64,000 nt of DNA from Malacoraja senta. Taxonomy: Eukaryota. Below the pieces are notes generated by a model. It was not told where the DNA came from, did not search any database, and was given only the letters and a program-made list of their open reading frames with translations. How positions within the stretch are numbered: the stretch's first letter is position 1; every line of letters begins with the position of its first letter. The stretch covers positions 24,740,001-24,804,000 of the forward strand of contig CM075987.1 in NCBI GenBank assembly GCA_038087875.1, given 5' to 3'. Below, in pieces: positions 9,326 through 26,590 of the stretch. The position numbers were made by a program, and so were the translations under genes.

Positions 9326-11894
9326 ACCCATTCCTTCTCTCCAGACATGCTGCCTGTCCCGCTGAGTTACTCCAGCTTTTTGTGTCTATCTTCGCTGGAG
9401 TTACTCAGCAGGTCAGACAGCATCCTTGGAGAGCATGGATAGGTGACATTTCAGGTCAGGATCCTTCTTCAGATTCAGGACTTCAGGAAATCTTGTTCTC
9501 ATCCCCTCCCGCCCCTACCTACACCTCTCCCTTCATCTTTACATTTCACTCCTCTCCTCTCCTCATCTCACGCCCTTTTGCCTCCTTTTCACTTCTAGCC
9601 TTTGTCACTCGAAAGACGTGCAGGTTAACAGGTTAATTGGCTTGGTACAATTGTAAAATTGTCCCTAGTGTGTGTAGGACAGTGTTAATGTGCAGGGATC
9701 GCAGGTCGGCGCGGACGCGGTGGGCCGAAGGGTGTGTTTCCGGTGCTGCATCTCCAAGCTAAACTAAAAGTTGACAGTCGAGAAGATCTGGAGAATTAAT
9801 TGCGAAATCTGGTCCATGAAATTCCTACTCAATCACCATCCTGGCCACACACTCATCTCCCCGCTACCTTCAGGTAGAAGGTACAGGAGCCTGAAGACTC
9901 CAACAACCAGGTTCAGGAATAGCTACTTCCCCACAGCCATCAGGCTATTAAACTTGGCTCGGACAAAACTCTGAACATTAATAGCCCATTATCTGTTTAT
10001 TTGCACTTTATCAGTTTATTTATTCGTGTGTGTATATATTTATATAATGGTATATGGACACCCTGATCTGTTCTGTACTCATGCCTACTATGTTCTGTTG
10101 TGCTGAAACAAAGCAAGAATTTCATTGTCCTATCTGGGACACATGACAATAAACTCTCTTGAATCTTGGCCTGGTTCTCTCAGGCAACTGGTTTGGCTGC
10201 GAACCCTCCTAAAACTCATCAAACTTGGTCCACGATCACATTAACCTTTGTTATTTTCAAGCATGTCAGAAATATTTACATTGCCTCCATAAATGTCATT
10301 GTAAATGACAATTCCTCAAAGAAAAAAAAAAAAGAAAGGACTGCGGAGTGGTCTTCATAAAAGGACTTATATTCCTTAAACACATCTTGTTGTAATGACA
10401 TCATTGTTTGGTTTTCTTAAACCGGCGGCTCTTCAAAAACTATTTAAACATTCAAGTATTTACAACGTTATGTTCTTACTCTGCACTGCAGTGGAAACAT
10501 TATAATCATGAGGGGGGTTGTAAAACCTCGTTTATGTGAGTGGATCAGAGAAGAACACTAAAGGAATAGAATAGACCGTTAGCATGTTTCCACAAAACAG
10601 AAAGAAAATGTTTGAAAACACTCCAATCCATTCCCCATTTTCCAATGATCCTAAACTTTTAAGGACAGTTCTATCAAATTCTATTAAACAACTCTTTTTT
10701 TTTTCTTTTTTTTATTGCATTCCAAAGTCTTTGGAAAAATAACAAAAGATTAAACCTTGTTTAAGAAAGTACAGCAGAAGCTGGAAAAATCGAAGGTAGC
10801 CAAAAATGCTGGAGAAACTCAGCGGGTGAGGCAGCATCTATGGAGCGAAGGAAATAGGCAACGTTTCGGCCCGAAACGTTGCCTATTTCCTTCGCTCCAT
10901 AGATGCTGCCTCACCACGCTGAGTTTCTCCAGCATTTTTGTCGACCTAAAGAATAAACCTTAGGATTTTCTCCAGATTTACCACAACCAGAGAGCCGTCC
11001 TGAGCCTACTATCGACCTAATTTGGTGACGCTCCGACTGTTCTTGATCGGACTTTGCCGGCACCACCTTGCACTAAATTGTTATTCCTCTCTCATGTATC
11101 TGTACACTGTAAATGGCTCGATTGTAATCGTGTATTGTCTTTCCGCTGACTGGTTAGCACGCAACAAAAGCTTTTCACTGGACCTCGGTACACGCGACAA
11201 TAAACTAAACTGAAACTGTCTGAACTGAAGATGAGCTTGAAGTTGTGAGCCTTGGTTCAAGGCCTCTCAATTCTCGTTTTTTAAGAGAGAGAAAGGTAAT
11301 ATAGTGAGGCAAAAAGTTTGATACAGAGATACAGCGCGGAAAGAGGTTCTTCGGCCCGAGTCCGCGCCGACCAGCGATCACCCCGCGCATTAATGCTACC
11401 TTACACACACTCGGGACAATTTACACATACACCAAGCCAATTAACCTACAAACCTGTACGTCTTTGGAGGGTTGGAGGAAACCGAAGATCTCGGAGAAAA
11501 CCCACGCGGTCACAGGGAGAATGCACAAACTCCGTACAGACAGCACACGTAGTCGGGGTCGAATCCGACTCCGGTGCTGCAAGCGCTGTAAGGCAGTAAC
11601 TCTACTGCTGCGCCACCCTCAAAGATCAAGAACAAGGTTTGAGGGGCATTAATTACCTTGTTGTGGTGGAGACGGCTGCAGGTGCTGAAATAGGATCCGG
11701 AAAGCTAAACCATGTGGAACTACACTCTTGGCCCCATGGGGCACCCGTGGTGGTCAGGTTGAGGAGAAGGTTCCAAGAAGATCTCATCAGGGAAAGTGGA
11801 ATACTGCGAGCAATATTGGGCACCATATCCGAGGAAGGATGTGCTGGCTCTGGAGAGGGTGAAGTGAAGATTTACAAGCATGATCCCAGGAATG

Positions 11895-12262: not shown

Positions 12263-14303
12263 ACATATGATGAGCGTTTGACAGCACTGAGCCTGTGCTC
12301 GCTGGAGTTTAGAAGGATGATGGGGCACCTTATTGAAACATACGGAGCAGTGAGAGGCTTGGATAGAGTGGATGTGGAGAGGATGTTTCCACTAGTGGGA
12401 GAGTCTAGGACTAGAGGCCATAGCCTCAGAATAAAAGGCCGTTCCTTTAGGAAGGAGATGAGGAGGAATTTCTTTAGTCAGAGGGTGGTGAATCTGTGGA
12501 ATTCTTTGCATGCACTTGTCTAACAGTTTCTTAAACATTGCGATAGTCCCTGCCACAACTACTTCCTCTGGCAGCTTGTTCCATACATCCACCGCCCTTT
12601 GTGTGAAAAACTTACCCTTCAGATTTCTATTAATTCTTTTCCCCTCACCTTAAACCAATGTCCTATGGTCCTCGATTCACATACTCTGTGCCATCTACCC
12701 AATCTATTCCCCTCATGACTTTATACACATATTAGAATATCTTCATATTTAGCTTGCACAATCTTCTCCAAATATCTCTTGTAAGGATAATCCACAGATG
12801 AAAATTGCCAAATTTTTACATTGCGAGTCGTACTAAAATGTCAATGAAAGTTGTTGATTTTCCAGTCCACTTGTTATTTTATTGTGACTGGGGCAGTAAA
12901 ATTAGAAAGACACAGAAGTTGCCTCGCCTGCATCATTAGACTCCAACATTTTATCGGCAAACTCTTCAGATTTTAATTCGCAAGTTGTTACGATTTCTGG
13001 ATTTAGGGATACAAACCTTCGTCTCAGGCAAGTACCAATACTGTTATTTTCGTTATTCTGAAATTCATTAGCCAGCATGGACGAATATCTGAACAAAGAA
13101 AACACGGAACAAACAACTAATAAATTCAGTGGAGGCCGTGCCATCAGCGGCATGCTGATGGAAATAGTTGTGAAGTGTTTCACTTGACTCCAAGCCAAAC
13201 TGCCGAAGTCAAAATCCAAATCCACTTCACGCACACATGAATTACGTGCAAAGAAGTTGATGTACAGCTCACTCATGCACCTTGTACAACCTCGAGAATT
13301 TCTCCAGTAATAGGCCCCTGGTTTAATGCTGCTGGAACACACCCAGTCAGCTTAGACAGGCAGGCTCAAATAACAGGCTGCCGTGGACATGAACCCGTGA
13401 CCTCCCCAGTGGTAGTCAAGTGATTGACTGCCTCAACTCCTTGGCTACCTCTTCATCTTCACTACTTTCCTTCTCATTTTCAGCATGCTTAAATATATTT
13501 CAACGTATCCCGTGCCCTTAAGGGGAATAACATCAAAGGCTCCATTATAACTGGTATCTAATCTACCCATTGTTTCGACAGCTACCCACCACAGAATTGA
13601 TGTTTTCATTTTTTCCCTAAGTTTGGAAGTACGGCGCGGAAACAGGCCCTTCGGCCCACCGAGTCAGCGCCGACCAGCAGTCCCCGTGCACTAACGCTAT
13701 CCTACACACACTAGCGACTGTTTAACGTTTATACCGAACCAATTACCCGACGTCTTTGGAGTGTGGGGATAACGTACAAACTCCGTACAGACAGCACCCG
13801 TAATCGGGATCGAACCCGGGTCTCTGGCGCTGTAAGTGCTGCAAGGCAGCAACTCTACCGCTGCGCCACCGTGCCGCCATAGTGCAAATACATCTAATGT
13901 CGGCTCACTTTTGCTTTAACAAGAGATTCTCGACACCACTGTTGGTGACAGGAGGAAGGGGGTGCAGAACACTGAGTGTTTCTATTTATATTTTTAACCA
14001 CATGACACGGTGGCCCAGAGGTAGAGTTGCTGCCTCACGGCGCCAGAGACCCGGGTTCGATCCTGACTACGGGTGCTGTCTCTACGGAGTTTGTACGTTC
14101 TCCCCGTGACCTGCGTGGGTTTTCTCCGGGAGCTCCGGATTTCTCCCACACTCCGAAGACGAACAGGTTTGGAGGTTAATTGGCTTTGGTATCAATGTAA
14201 AAATGTCCCTAGTGTATGTAGGATAGTGTTAACGTGCAGGGATTGCTGGCCGGCGCGAACTCGGTGGGCCGAAGGGCCTGTTTCCGCGCTGTATCTCTAT
14301 ACT

Positions 14304-15012
14304 TCCTTACTACCGATTATACCTCCTGGCATGTAGGGCAGCAACGAAGGTCCTTCACTCAGTAGTGGTGATTCCTTCAGTTGCTGTCTCCATCAAAGAT
14401 CCTATAGCGGAGCAAGATGGACCACTCCTGCTAAATGCAATGGGCTGACATGTAGTACGCAACGGAGTGGAACGTGGGCCTTTTTTTTCATCCATTTCCG
14501 TAAACGGACCAGACCCGACTTGCAGTGTAATCAACGTTGCGGGGGGAACAGTTTGTGTTAATAAATTAAAATTCTGAAAATGAGGAGAAAAGTTTTCCCA
14601 AATAACTCTTATTTTTACGAGGATGTTTCCGTAACCGGCTTCCGTCTCTGCACTATTATCCTATGGGATCTTTGGTGCGGAGACGGAAGCCGGTTACGGA
14701 AATGGGGCCTTAAATTACCCATGAATCTGCCCATGACCGTACTACGTCTTTTTCGTCGAGTGGACTATCTTGCTCGCTGTAGGATCTTTGGTCTCCATAA
14801 CATATTTGTTTTACGAGACAGGGTTGTTAGCCCCTGTGCTCAACCTCCAACCTGGAGGACCAGTGGATCGCTCTTCGTCTCACCTCTACCCTTCGACCTG
14901 TCCAGCATGGGAGACCCTAACAGGAGACGAATCTCCCGCTGGCCTTGCTCTAGGGGTCACGGAGACACACAAGCTCCCCGACCATGACAGGGTTGCAATC
15001 CAACGGGGAGCA
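14304..15012 (-). mobile_element. Second bipartite RTE-derived element (about 300 bp of its own sequence), interrupted by the 14394-14790 MITE
   Basis: On the minus strand it has an RTE-type 5' UTR (...TCCACTGGTCCTCCAGGTTGGAGGTTGAGCACAGGGGCTAACAACCCTGTCTCGTAAAAC) and an RTE-type 3' end (TTCGTTGCTGCCCTACATGCC...GTAAGGAAG). Flanking duplication TATCTCTATACT at 14292-303 and 15013-24. Confidence 0.7.
14394..14790. mobile_element. Non-autonomous DNA transposon with CAAAG termini and 8-bp TSD (P-element-like; hAT not excluded)
   Basis: Imperfect TIRs of about 32 bp (caaagatcctatagc.gagcaagat...) and a perfect TSD GTCTCCAT at 14386-93 and 14791-98. Confidence 0.75.
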
Positions 15013-16884
15013 TATCTCTATACTATATCTCTATACTAAACTAAACTAAATATAAATCTCTCCTCCTTCTTAATTCTGTTGACAGGCCTTTATAATGATG
15101 AAAGCTCAATTGACGACTTGTCGTGCCTCTTAGACTTGAAGATTTATCTCCACAAAACTATTTAAAACTGCACTTTGTTACGTAGATTAAACAGCCTTGT
15201 ATTTACACCACAGGATGTACCACGGGACACTCACGTGTGAAGGATTATAGATTTGCTCAATAGCAATCAGATAAGTATTTCAATTAGCTATAAACACTAA
15301 TCCAACAAAAATAAGTGCCATAATTGTCTGAAATGAAATGCCCCAGGCTCTCTTTGCTGAGAAATCTATCCCAGACAGCAGCACTAGGCATGTTATACGA
15401 TATTGTCAATGTGTTCTAATCTCTCCTTAATTTCAGTCGGATTCAATGGGTTCTTGAGAGTCTGATTATAATCTAGTAGCGCAGCGGTAGAGTTGCTGCC
15501 TCACAGCGCCAGAGAACCGGGTTTGATCCTGACTACGGGTGCTGTCAGTACAGAGTTTGTACGTTCTCCCCGTGACCCGCGTGGGTTTTCTCCGGGATCT
15601 CCGGTTTCCTCCCTCACTCCAAAGACGTGCAGGTTTGTAGGTTTAAGAAGGAACTGCAGATGCCGTAAAAATAGAAGGTAGACAAAAATGCTGGAGAAAC
15701 TCAGCGGGTGAGGCAGCATCTATGGAGCGAAGGAATAGGTGACGTTTCGGGTCGAGACCCGAAACGTCACCTATTCCTTCGCTCCATAGATGCTGCCTCA
15801 CCCGTCGAGTTTCTCCAGCACTTTTGTCTACCTTCGGGTATGTTGGTTAATTGGTTTGGTATACAAATGTAAAATTAACCCTGGTGTGTGTAGGATAGTG
15901 CTAGTGTGCGGGGATCGCTGTTCGGCGTGGACCCGGTGGGCCGAAGGGCATGTTCCCGTGCTATAACTCTAAACCAAACTAAACTAAGCATTCATACAGC
16001 AGGGAAACCAGCTCTTTGATCCATCTAGTCTGGGTCAACCATAAGCCTATTTCAACCATAAACCACACACTTACCTATACCCGTGGTCGATGGCCGGCGT
16101 GTACCCAGGGCAAGATGGGACATCTTGGTCGGCATGGACATGTTGGGCCGAAGGGCCTGTTTCCGTGCTGTATGACACTGCGACTCCTTCATCAACTCCC
16201 TAAGATTTCCCGACTCACCTAAATGCCGGGGGCAAATCGCAGTGGGGAATTGGCCCACTAATGAGCATATCTTGTGGAATGCGGGAGGAAACCGGAGCAT
16301 CTGCAGGAAATAAAGCCACCGGGACACCCTACAAATTCCACAGAAACAGCACCGGAGGTCAGGATTGAACCTGTGTCGTTTGGAGAGCTCTGAGGACAGC
16401 ATTTTTTACCATTGCACCACTGTGATCATGGCTTGGAAGCACCTGGAAAACATTTCCTAAATAAAATATTGTCATTTCCAATCAGTAACAGATGTCGTAC
16501 CTTCAACTGAACAAACGCTCACAGTGAAACTCTGCGGTAATATATGTAAACGACATTGAATTTGATCCTTTACTGTGTTAATTACAAAACGCAAGGGCAG
16601 ATTCTCGGTCATCTTAAGTATGAAAATGGGTTGCGATTTTTGTGCTGTTATTCTCAAGGCACAAAGTTATGAGTGAATCGTGACTTCCGATGCCCAACAA
16701 TGATCGCTCTGAGAAGGTGTTGTCTCGCCACCTGAAAATAAGTATCGTCATGGAGTCACACAGCACGGAAACAGGCCCTTCGGCCCAACTTGGCCTTGCC
16801 GCCCAAAATGCCACATCTACACGAGTCTGACCTGCCTGTGTTTGGTACAGATCCCTCTATACATTCCCTAACTACAGAGTCATA

Positions 16885-17284
16885 CCTTCTCCGTGGATTG
16901 ACACCTTGTCGTGGTGGAGAAGCTTGTGTGGTCCTGAGGTCGATGCCGTCTGGAGCTATGCTCCTGGTGGGGCCACCCATGGCGGTGAGGTCGAGGGGGA
17001 GTTCTCTGACAGAGAGCAATCCAACCAAGACCTCAACGGTGGAACAGGCGGAGGACGCTGGCTGACCTTAGTGGAGCGTCACAACGGCTGGGAAGGCGGA
17101 TGAAGGCTGCAGCAGAAAAGGGTCTCCGGTCGTCTTGGACTCCATGCCACTGGATCCTGACCCAGATCTGTCAAGGACCGTGGGGTGGCTGTCTGTGCAC
17201 CAGTCTCCCCACGTTAAACAAAGTCATGCAAAAGCGTCCTCCACGAGCGGACAGTCATACTCGTTTCGAGTGACCGCCGATGAT
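16885..17284 (+). mobile_element. Bipartite non-autonomous RTE-derived retroelement (5' UTR fused to 3' end)
   Basis: The 5' part resembles RTE/BovB 5' UTRs (CCTTGTCGTGG...GCTTG...GGGCCACCCA...GGTC...GAGTTCTCTGACA). It ends in a (GAT)n tail and is flanked by AGAGTCATA (16876-84, 17285-93). No RT ORF. Confidence 0.7.
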
Positions 17285-19289
17285 AGAGTCATAGAGTGAT
17301 ACAGCGTGGAAACAAGCCCTCGGCCCAAGTTGCCCACACCGGCCAACATGTCCCAGCTACACTAGTCCCACCTGCCTGCGCTTGGTCCTTATCACTCCAA
17401 ACCTGTCCGATCCATACACCTGTCCAAATATCCTTTAAATGCATTTCATCAAATAATTTTTAAGTGCATTAGTCGTAGCAGCAGAATTAGGCCATTCGGC
17501 CCATCGAGTCTACACCGCCATGCAATCATGGCTGATCTATCTTTCCCTCCCAACCCCATTCCCCCTGCTTTCTCCCCATAGCCCCTGACACCGTACTAAT
17601 CAAGAAAATCCATCAATCTCCGCCTTAAAAACATCCATTGACTTGGCCTCCACAGCCGCCTGCGGCAATGAATTCCACAGATTCACCACCCTCTGTCGAA
17701 AGAAACTCCTCCTCATCTCCTTTCCAAAGGTACGGCCTTTTGTAGGATTTGTACAACAATGGCGTTGGATGGACTCTTACTGAGGCCATCTTGATTGAAA
17801 CACATTGCTGTCACAATCTAACATGTTATTAGTCATGGTGACCAACAAGCCACCAAATTTCTGTACAAACCCATCTGGTTCATTGGTGGCCTCACTGGGC
17901 CCAAATTTGTTAGCCATCACTCATAACACGTTTTCTTTGATTCAGAAATCACCCAGGCGACTATCTGAGGGCGGGCCACAGAAGCCGATCTACAGTCACA
18001 CATTACAATCGCTCCACACTCTTAAATCTCTACTCCCACAGCAACATTTCTTACTTTATTGGACTTTGCGGGCATTACTTTAGTCAGAGGGTAGTTAATC
18101 TGTGGAACTCATCGCCACAGAGGGCTGTGGAGGCCAAGTCCGTGGATATCTTTAAGGCAGAGATAGACCAATTCTTGATTGGAACAGGTGTCATGGGGAG
18201 AAGGCAGGAAAATGGGATTAGGGGGCAGAGATCAGCCACGATTGAATGGCGGAAGTAGACTCACAATGGGCCGAATGGCCTAATTCTATTCCTATCACTT
18301 GTGACCTTATGATCCCATCTTCATCCTTCAAATTCTCCCTCTCCACAAAGAATGTTATTCATTAATTTATCTGTACGCATTTCGTTGAAATAGGGGCTAA
18401 TCTCAACAAAGAATGAAGGTAGAGGGCACATAGTTAGCTTGTGCAGGAGAAACTCGTCACCTTAAATCATTGTATGTGTGCAGTAACCAGGGGCAACAGT
18501 AGCATCCATCAACAAGAGAACCTCCATTTTCAAAGTGGAAATGGTCGAATGAGCAACAAAAAAAAGACCACATTCCTTGCTGTAAGACCAACAAATATTG
18601 TGCCTGCACATAAATCTCAAAGCAATAGGTTTTTCTTCCAAATAATTCCAAGCATATTTGAGTTGTATCCTTAAGCCCCTGTCCCACTTACGTGTCCTTG
18701 GCACGCTAATTACGCGACCTCGCGCCCGCACAGCCGTCTGGAACGCGTGACGTTATTTGAAGATGGACACAAAATGCTGGAGTAACTCAGCGGGACCGGC
18801 AGCATCTCTGGAGAGAAGGAATGGGTGACGTTTCGTGTCGAGACTCTTCTTCAGTCTGAAAGAAGGGTCTTGATCCGAAACGTCACCCATTCCTTCTAGA
18901 GTCATAAAGTGGTAGTGTGTGGAAACAGGCCCTTCAGCCCAACTTGCCCACACCGGCCAACAATGTCCCATCCACCCTAGTCCCACTTGCCTGCGCTTGG
19001 TCCATAACCCTCCAAACCTGTCCTATCCATGTACCTGTCTAACTGTTTCTTAAACTATGGGATAGTCCCTGCCTCAACTACCTCCTCTGGCAGCTTGTTC
19101 CATACACCCACTGCTCTTTGTGTGAAAAAGTTACCCCTCGGATTGCTATTAAATCTTTTCCCCTTGACCTTGAACCCATGTCCTCTGGTCCTCGATTCCC
19201 CTACTCCGGGCAAGAGGCTCTGTGCATCTACCCGATCTATTCCTCTCATGATTTTTTATACCTCTATCAGAACTCCCCTCATCCTCCTG

Positions 19290-25650: not shown

Positions 25651-26590
25651 TTAGTTATCAATATATATATATTTTATTTTTTTTAACTATAGCAGAGGGT
25701 CAAATCATTTCATAAGTTCACGCTCATAAGTGATAGGAGCAGAATTTGGCCATTCGGCCCATTATGTCTACCTCGCCATTCAGTCATGGGTGATCTATCT
25801 TTCCCTCCTATTCTTCTGCCATCTCCCCATAACCTCTGACACCCATACTAATCTGGTATCAAACTGGCTAATGACACTTTGACACAGTCATACCGCATGG
25901 AAATAGACCCTGCAGTCCAACCCTTCAGCTCAACCCATCCACGCCAACCAGGTTTTATAATGGGGCTTGCTTGCATTTGGCCTCTATCCCTTGAATGAAC
26001 GCAGAGAACATTTCCAAGGATGTTGCCAAGACTCCAGGCCTGAGCCACTGGGAGCTTGTTCGGTAGACTTGGACTTCATTCTGTGGAGTGTAGGAAGCTG
26101 AGGTGTGATCTTAATGGGGCGTATTAAATATCAGTTTGTCCGTGGCCTCACTGTGGCAATGGAGGAGACCAATGGCAGAAAGGTCCTCCTGGGAATATTG
26201 TATGGGAATACCATAAATATTCCTTTCCATTCCTCTCATACGGTGAATGCACAGGATATGTTACCCAGGGTAGAAAACCAGAGGACATAGGTTTAAAGTG
26301 AGAGGGGAATGATTGAATGGGAAACTGAGGGGCAACCTTCTGCTTCTTCTTGCGTATGGCGTGCACAGTCTAAAGTTGTAGGACAACTTGTTCTATTTGG
26401 TCTTATTTGATTGTGCACGCCAGGTTGATTGCATTCGTCGAAACAGGCGGACCACGTGAAGGTTGCAATCTCCCACCCCAGGGGCAACCTCATCCACACG
26501 GATGGTGAGGTGTATATGGAATAAGCTGCCAGTGGACTTGGTGAGGCTGGTAGAATGACAACGTTTGAAGACTTCTTAACAAGTACGTTA

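Follow-up and report, generated by a model that had tools for sequence, protein, structure and literature searches.

The window analysed here is a stretch of 64,000 nucleotides (nt) of the Malacoraja senta genome (contig CM075987.1, positions 24,740,001 to 24,804,000), and positions are given in its numbering. It carries two short interspersed elements, X on the forward strand and Y on the reverse strand, with homology limited to their first ~140 nt; this common part, ~145 nt long, is hereafter called the head. An earlier note on the same DNA had placed both elements and proposed that they share a selected RNA structure of no named fold, a ribozyme for 5' processing being one possibility. Alignment of copies and target-site duplications (TSDs) put the start of X at 16886 and that of Y at 15010, and the positions given earlier agree to within 1-2 nt. 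Judged from its sequence, the head has the topology and the core motifs of a ribozyme of the HDV-like class (HDV, hepatitis delta virus), and the fold left without a name can now be given one. The elements and the parts of their heads (P, paired helices; L, loops; J, joining strands) are as follows.

[quoted passage not shown]
16886 to 16892, forward strand: 5' strand of X P1, CUUCUCC, pairing with 16916-16922; its base 1 marks the element's 5' end and the site at which cleavage is predicted
16895 to 16901, forward strand: 5' strand of X P2, GGAUUG(A), the final base mutated in this copy and U in the family consensus
16903 to 16915, forward strand: X P3 with L3, ACC/GGU around the loop UUGUCGU, invariant in X, Y and a third family, Z
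16916 to 16923, forward strand: 3' strand of X P1, GGAGAAG, and the next base, C16923, which can pair with G16908 (L3 position 3) as P1.1
16924 to 17009, forward strand: X linker UUGUGUG and branched P4, with the inner stem 16946-16950/16981-16985
16952-16956/16960-16964 and 16970-16972/16976-16978, forward strand: hairpins within the branched P4 of X
17010 to 17015, forward strand: X J4/2, with C17010 as the candidate catalytic cytosine, then AGAGA here and AAAGA in the consensus
17016 to 17022, forward strand: 3' strand of X P2, GCAAUCC, part of the closing stem of the earlier note
15010 to 14304, reverse strand: element Y, with head, ~160-nt body and tail, the tail being (AAGT)n in the family
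14865 to 15010, reverse strand: Y head, with P1 at 15010-15004/14980-14974 (CUCCCCG/CGGGGAG) and P2 at 15001-14995/14871-14865
14993 to 14981, reverse strand: Y P3 and L3, the loop reading CUGUCAU through mutation; candidate catalytic C at 14877

The head begins at position +1 with a P1 of 7 bp, followed by the 5' strand of P2, a P3 of 3 bp with its 7-nt L3 and, right after P3, the 3' strand of P1; a one-pair P1.1, a large P4, an invariant C-N-A-A and the 3' strand of P2 complete it. Since P1 encloses the 5' strand of the closing stem, P1 and P2 form a pseudoknot. In HDV-like ribozymes, according to the literature, a nested double pseudoknot arises where P1 encloses the 5' strand of P2 together with P3 and P2 closes over P4, with P1-P1.1-P4 and P2-P3 as the two stacks (PMC4908430). 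All helices were found in this order in X, Y and Z. The lengths in consensus copies of the three families (P1 7 bp, P2 7-9 bp, P3 3 bp) agree with those reported for the class (P1 6-7 bp, P2 at least 5 bp, P3 3 bp), and the loop UUGUCGU has both the conserved U and the C-G, with its highly conserved G, that are described for L3 (PMC3774820). This G is substituted at a CpG in window Y and in a metagenomic relative, L168, both of which appear decayed. The catalytic cytosine is reported to be the first position of J4/2 (PMC10879173); here, a candidate C and the N-A-A behind it are retained in X, Y, Z, L168, a second metagenomic relative (L116), a fourth element (V) and the canonical relatives described below, and in X, Y, Z, L168, L116 and V this C lies 4-6 nt ahead of the 3' strand of P2. 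X, Y and Z show no variation in P3, in L3, in the base that follows P1 or in the C-N-A-A of J4/2. The linker is the same in X and Y and one base off in the Z consensus (CUUGCGUG).

All four helices proposed in the earlier note are present. Three of them are the closing stem (X 16895-16900/17017-17022, Y 15001-14995/14871-14865), the hairpin GGAGC/GCUCC of X that corresponds to GGAGA/UCUCC in Y with one compensatory pair, and the hairpin GGG/CCC, with a stem invariant between the two. The inner stem exists as well, and its Y strands CCAGC/GCUGG are correct; the register proposed for X, GCCGU/AUGGC, is shifted, and the columns shared with Y (CCAGC/GCUGG) read CCGUC/GGCGG in X, with two compensatory pairs. 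The 5'-terminal 7-bp stem, P1, had not been proposed; it pairs in X and Y, with three compensatory double changes. RNAalifold, unaided, predicts the nested part of the structure, namely P1, P3 and the P4 helices. Two further assignments were considered. AGGUCGA was rejected as J4/2, there being no P2 partner downstream of it, and RNAalifold pairs part of the string within P4. At the P4 base, X and Y could form a helix GUC/GAC that would bury the candidate cytosine; it was not counted, the Z consensus having GAC/GAC.

The genome searched for copies comprises 1.94 Gb in 6182 contigs. A pattern consisting of the P3/L3 core and the linker occurs at 2908 places in it, as against two for the reversed control, and family Z was traced from unusual P1 strands among these matches. 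Z is older than X and Y; its P1 is CCUCUUC/GAAGAGG and its P2 GGAUCGUU(U)/(G)AACGAUCC, with P3, L3 and J4/2 unchanged. A search with nhmmer of 80 metagenomic loci that code related LINE proteins identified one clear homologue of the head, L168 (E 2e-21), and the partial L116. In L168, four pairs of P2 show double changes.

The alignments argue for selection on these pairings. With X and Y alone (alignment A1), 99.4% of 170 cells were paired, compared with 38-57% when the partners were slid by 1-3 columns, and changes on both sides were observed in five pairs, three of them in P1, compared with 0-2 in the slid controls. In an 18-row alignment representing four lineages (families X, Y and Z and the metagenomic L168), the paired fraction was 94.4% of 627 cells (40-53% in six slid controls) and both sides had changed in 19 of 35 pairs (1-6 in the slid controls). 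None of 500 shuffles matched the observed paired fraction, double-change count or covariation score. Double-changed pairs make up 5/7 of P1, 5/7 of P2 and the single pair of P1.1, which is G-C in 16 rows, G-U in one row and, in L168, A-U in place of G-C; P2 and P1.1 stood outside the model used to build the alignment. P3 and one hairpin are uninformative on covariation, as neither varies. In each of the three families P1 is a fully complementary stem of 7 bp, with a sequence that differs from one family to the next. The covariation in four lineages supports the selected structured RNA that the earlier note had proposed.

Related elements provide a second line of comparison. A simple descriptor of our own (P3 of 3 bp, L3 matching U-N3-C-G-N, P2 of 7 bp, and a C preceding the 3' strand of P2) gave 21 sense matches on related metagenomic RTE loci, against seven antisense matches and seven in shuffled sequence. 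Canonical HDV-like ribozyme matches, complete with a P1 that starts with G, were found in the RTE 5'UTRs of L119, L126, L128 and L134; L123, L135, L131 and L120 match the descriptor, and P1 was not found in them. The matches lie at L119:80-330, L126:20-300, L128:582-760, L134:2021-2230, L123:130-230 and L135:160-260. J1/2 is ~96-175 nt long in the four loci with P1, and P4 is short in most canonical relatives. The L3 loops of these relatives are UCCUCGU, UCCACGU and UUCUCGU; L123 and L135 have the P3 of the window heads, ACC/GGU, around the loop UCCACGU, with the pattern U...CGU in common. The same descriptor matches the head of window X, P1 included. Across 280 kb of loci it recognises 66 head-type sites with the exact ACC-UUGUCGU-GGU core, of which 45 have P1, and gives 14 further matches, namely three Y heads with a variant L3, two copies of V and nine unrelated sites without P1. 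Element V also lies in the window:

26337 to 26479, reverse strand: element V, ~143 nt, with G at +1, P2 GAUUGCA/UGCAAUC, P3 ACC/GGU, L3 UUCACGU and J4/2 C-GAA; P4 is absent, and ~90 nt then lead to an (AAG)n tail; TSD GTTGCCCCT

V looks like a minimal HDV-like ribozyme at the front of an element resembling a short interspersed nuclear element (SINE). At least 617 candidate places were found for it, with 95-100% identity in all 40 scored copies; further copies lie at L079:2749-2890 (forward strand) and in L018 (reverse strand). V and Y have 21 nt in common at 90%.

The head probably descends from the 5' terminus of an RTE-type LINE and has been retained by X, by Z, by Y (head only) and, in minimal form, by V. 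The locus L114 holds an internally deleted LINE copy that has a Z head as its 5' end and further comprises a 5'UTR of ~520 nt, the N-terminus of an AP-endonuclease and the C-terminus of the open reading frame. Over 313 nt, the head and 5'UTR of Z (L110) are 91% identical to the 5' end of L114, and the identity between X and Z amounts to 71% across 363 nt; on these identities X and Z are internal-deletion derivatives of the LINE. In a further locus, L108 (G000:C1:36843230-36843900), a Z head is joined directly to the last ~40 LINE codons, which include a C2H2-like motif, and to a 3'UTR hairpin. Joined 5' and 3' LINE ends with loss of the coding sequence are thus seen in Z compared with L114, in L108 and in X compared with Z, while Y has the head alone in common with them. 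The earlier derivation of the elements from an RTE-type LINE by loss of coding sequence is accordingly supported for X, by way of Z, and for Z itself, and for Y it extends to the head.

Several observations concern the LINE itself. LINEs of the RTE clade typically measure about 3-4.5 kb, with a single long open reading frame for an N-terminal AP-endonuclease and a reverse transcriptase, and end in short tandem repeats in place of poly(A). L111 represents the 3' half of the LINE; it contains a reverse transcriptase domain (RVT_1, E 5e-10) and, at the C-terminal end, a C2H2-like motif scoring below the Pfam cut-off. Full-length homologues of 1063-1077 aa, carrying PF03372, PF14529 and PF00078, are encoded on contigs of 3.4-4.4 kb; two of them bear the name craniofacial development protein 2(-like), which we take to mark RTE/BovB descent. 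Tails occur as (GAC)n, (GAT)n, (AAG)n or (AAGT)n. A 72-nt query of tail A, body sequence included, found X copies only and no partner LINE, and BLAST of the tails against the retrieved loci gave one lead outside X, L046:886-917, with no recognisable reverse transcriptase upstream. L108, flanked by the TSD TGTGTACC, is a one-off derivative of Z that illustrates the origin of such mini-elements. The endonuclease fragment of the LINE is 63-85% identical to predicted proteins (P0001-P0014) from very different animals, the record names mentioning a mantis shrimp, a lizard, a prawn and a coral; such a spread points to the patchy occurrence that has often been described for RTE elements.

Both window elements belong to large families. 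For the 156-nt 5' part of X at least 1675 candidate places were identified in the genome (identity 91-100% in 40 of 40 scored matches), and for the 5' part of Y at least 740 (95-100%, likewise in 40 of 40). Copies end sharply on the 5' side, and the canonical length is ~335-390 nt for X and ~305 nt for Y. Many copies have heads that match the family consensus exactly, and both families are therefore young. X copies occur with or without an 8-nt duplication and with either of two tails, (GAT)n or (AAG)n; the window copy is without the duplication, which is typical of the majority subfamily. The heads of window X and window Y are identical at 93 of 139 positions (67%), and consensus-identical copies of the two families show 72.7% identity across 139 nt. 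Window Y is split between body and tail by an insertion of ~400 bp (about 14393-14791), which, together with two changes in the L3 loop, marks it as a decayed copy. Insertions at the same position of the body are present in several further Y copies. X is flanked on both sides by the repeat AGAGTCATA and is embedded in another interspersed repeat (16745-16885 and 17285-17380; …AGAGTCATA…GGAAACAGGCCCTTCGGCCCAAC…). The window contains, in addition, one old copy of the head:

11647 to 11791, forward strand: degenerate, 5'-truncated old head copy (model R1, 23.3 bits, E 4.6e-4), the CpG of L3 decayed

The 5' ends of the copies are informative on the point at which their RNA began. Of 85 copies, 46 were seen to be flanked by a direct repeat measuring 8 nt or more, which ends at the exact first base of P1 in 23 of these 46, one base into P1 in seven and two bases into P1 in one. 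As the TSDs end at the first base of P1, the RNA that was reverse transcribed appears to have begun at the predicted HDV-like cut site.

Taken together, these observations favour a reading, to which we assign a probability of about 0.7, in which the head is, in master copies, a self-cleaving HDV-like ribozyme that processes the element's 5' end. X, Y, Z and V, which have no recognisable promoter of their own, would be transcribed within longer host transcripts; the ribozyme would fold co-transcriptionally and cut just 5' of the first nucleotide of P1, stripping off the upstream host sequence and leaving an RNA with a defined 5' end. The reverse transcriptase of the LINE would then recognise the short LINE-derived 3' tail and copy the RNA into a new site. 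In this scheme we infer the cleavage, the identity of the catalytic cytosine and the read-through transcription. A more specific proposal, for which we would put the odds slightly below even, is that the heads constitute an active but divergent HDV-like subclass, with a C-G cleavage site, a single P1.1 pair of reversed polarity, a linker of 5-6 nt and a P4 that is large and branched; within one animal genome it would serve as a modular head for the SINE-like families X, Y, Z and V, high-copy retroposons with different LINE tails, whose defined 5' ends would come from self-cleavage within read-through transcripts rather than from an RNA polymerase III (pol III) promoter.

A number of findings weigh against a self-cleaving head. 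Canonical HDV-like ribozymes have a G at +1 that forms a G-U wobble at the cleavage site. The base at this position is a G in the canonical relatives and in V, whereas X, Y and Z have a C paired with G; a G at +1 is not universal, since the validated ribozyme L1TcRz begins with C. P1.1 consists of a single possible pair next to a U-U, as compared with the two-pair form. The strand between P1.1 and P4 measures 5-6 nt against 0-2 nt in R2 ribozymes (PMC3774820), and J4/2 is 6 nt long in X and Y and, on a 9-bp reading of P2, 4 nt in Z. In X and Y, though not in the Z consensus, a G of the linker is a possible pairing partner of the candidate catalytic cytosine, as part of the GUC/GAC helix mentioned above, and the base of P4 falls at non-homologous columns in X, Y and Z. 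Nested minimum free energies of four heads, calculated with pseudoknots ignored, differ little from those of shuffled sequences (z -0.47 to -1.24). The covariation is drawn from four lineages only, L168 is without the 5' strand of P1, and the 18-row alignment was fitted to the nested helices, which leave out P2 and P1.1.

The same holds for the Rfam comparison. No match at the gathering score was obtained in the whole window, and at E values up to 10 the region 14200-17400 gave seven matches, none of them on either head and HDV-like families included in the comparison; the Rfam check proposed in the earlier note has therefore returned no family for the heads. The covariance models used in such searches are unable to encode a pseudoknot, and P4 is long here, both of which bear on this result. 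The sub-threshold matches are located at 15702-15808, at 14561-14712 and at unrelated spots. Near-perfect long hairpin repeats occupy 15702-15808 and 14572-14712, the latter within the insertion that splits Y; they match MIR1507 (47 bits, cut-off 73) and STnc400 (35 bits, cut-off 80), on both strands or in an odd context, and are most likely foldback repeats or repeats resembling miniature inverted-repeat transposable elements.

The transcripts are compatible both with cleavage and with its absence. RNA ends were judged from one raw-read polyA run (463 reads), three other runs being contigs that carry no end information. In that run (X24, from another organism), read starts do not pile up at +1, and 94 reads pass from a shared upstream flank across the +1 junction of one expressed variant X copy (L008:1300-1950), which dominates the run, has a mismatch in P1 and lies within a polyadenylated transcript. 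The reads show a strong strand bias; in view of the stranded library and the strand of the reads, this copy may lie antisense in the transcript.

Some of these departures would be expected if the HDV-like fold were kept without cleavage, for binding of a LINE protein, for protection of an uncapped 5' end or for cap-independent translation in the LINE. The C at +1, the one-pair P1.1, the long linker, the long J4/2 and the reads running through +1 all agree with such a role; binding of the R2 protein to a 5' pseudoknot has been reported, and HDV-like ribozymes have been proposed to act in the manner of internal ribosome entry sites (PMC6765202). Nevertheless, X, Y, Z and V are non-coding and need no translation element, yet they keep the core; the U...CGU of L3 and the C-N-A-A of J4/2 are invariant, as an active site would be; the first base of P1 is exactly where the 5' ends of the elements fall, which a binding module alone does not explain unless transcription starts there too; and a validated ribozyme with C at +1 is known. 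Retention of the fold without cleavage is hence considered unlikely.

Conservation of the head mainly as an internal promoter (pol III A and B boxes or an RNA polymerase II core), with incidental pairings, would account for the SINE-like copy number and the sharp 5' ends; weak strings resembling an A box and a B box can be read by eye, and Pr77 of L1Tc is both promoter and ribozyme (PMC3383444). However, compensatory double changes in 19 of 35 pairs are unexpected for a promoter acting at the DNA level, the parent is a LINE 5'UTR, and the heads show no tRNA by ARAGORN and no match to a small-RNA family, so that this explanation is held to be very improbable. A classical pol III SINE head, which derives from a gene for a small RNA (tRNA, 5S or 7SL) and contains internal A/B or 5S boxes, was itself rejected as a candidate, there being no ARAGORN tRNA genes and no Rfam small-RNA match on the heads, and the head being the 5' end of a LINE.

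The missing Rfam match, together with a large P4 whose invariant strings, such as AGGUCGA, have no explained role, could point to a functional or self-cleaving RNA of some other, unnamed fold that resembles the HDV-like one superficially. Against this, the order and spacing of P1, P2, P3, L3, P1.1 and J4/2 match those of the canonical relatives in homologous RTE 5'UTRs, the head answers to the same descriptor as these relatives, and the minimal V does entirely without P4; we consider a different fold very improbable. Similarity by descent with chance pairing and no selected structure, to which the unremarkable free energies and the few independent lineages might be thought to lend support, is scarcely credible, as the tests on X and Y and on the 18 rows already contradict it, with none of 500 shuffles reaching the observed values, slid controls only 40-53% paired, and P1 being a distinct, fully complementary stem of 7 bp in each of three families.

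If the heads do cleave as proposed, one genome would harbour thousands of copies of HDV-like ribozymes in at least four retroposon families, and these copies would constitute a natural mutational series with three P1 stems, three P2 stems and P4 present or absent. They would widen the known sequence space of the fold, notably by the C at +1 and the one-pair P1.1, and would provide a clear case, in an animal-type genome of 1.94 Gb, in which short non-autonomous elements have spread with no promoter head of the small-RNA kind. Cleavage would also have a bearing on the classing of repeats as "SINEs of unknown origin" and, in host transcripts that contain sense copies, on hidden cleavage sites. 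If the heads do not cleave, they represent an ordinary conserved structure of a LINE 5'UTR.

HDV-like ribozymes have been reported in RTEs and in some non-autonomous SINEs (PMC6765202), and the kind of element described here is thus already known, while the core of its head is unusual. A description of an HDV-like ribozyme on a vertebrate SINE-like element was not found in a literature search that was partly ill-targeted and did not cover the catalogues of RTE ribozymes. With the retrotransposon ribozymes described (PMC6765202; for R2, PMC3774820) the heads share the double pseudoknot at the 5' end of the element, the cut predicted at the first base of P1, a P1 of 6-7 bp, a P3 of 3 bp, the C-G of L3, a C (here the candidate one) leading J4/2, the variability of P4 and J1/2 and an RTE-type LINE host without an evident promoter. 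They differ in having C (C-G) rather than G (G-U) at +1, one G-C pair of reversed polarity as P1.1, a linker of 5-6 nt, a branched P4 of ~90 nt and a J1/2 of 0-2 nt, and in matching no Rfam model. In comparison with the related metagenomic RTEs, the layout is opposite, theirs combining a J1/2 that is long (~96-175 nt) where P1 was found with a P4 that is mostly short.

Among short elements with an embedded ribozyme, the SINE-like elements of schistosomes (hammerhead and twister variants; PMC8501958, PMC6765202) are likewise short non-autonomous retroposons trimmed by the ribozyme they carry, and differ in ribozyme class and host group. The closest analogues are NARTc and the R2 SIDEs. L1TcRz/Pr77 of Trypanosoma cruzi L1Tc and NARTc (PMC3185411, PMC3383444, PMC4035085) stands at the start of a LINE, is common to its short non-coding derivatives and cleaves before C, as predicted for the heads; it differs in belonging to the L1Tc/ingi clade of a protist host, in its length of 77 nt and in its proven promoter activity. 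The R2 SIDEs (PMC3414825) resemble X, Y, Z and V as non-autonomous elements that arose by internal deletion and have retained both the 5' ribozyme and the 3' end that reverse transcription requires. R2 is, however, site-specific in rDNA and co-transcribed with 28S, whereas X, Y, Z and V are dispersed in hundreds to thousands of copies, with the same head on at least three different tails.

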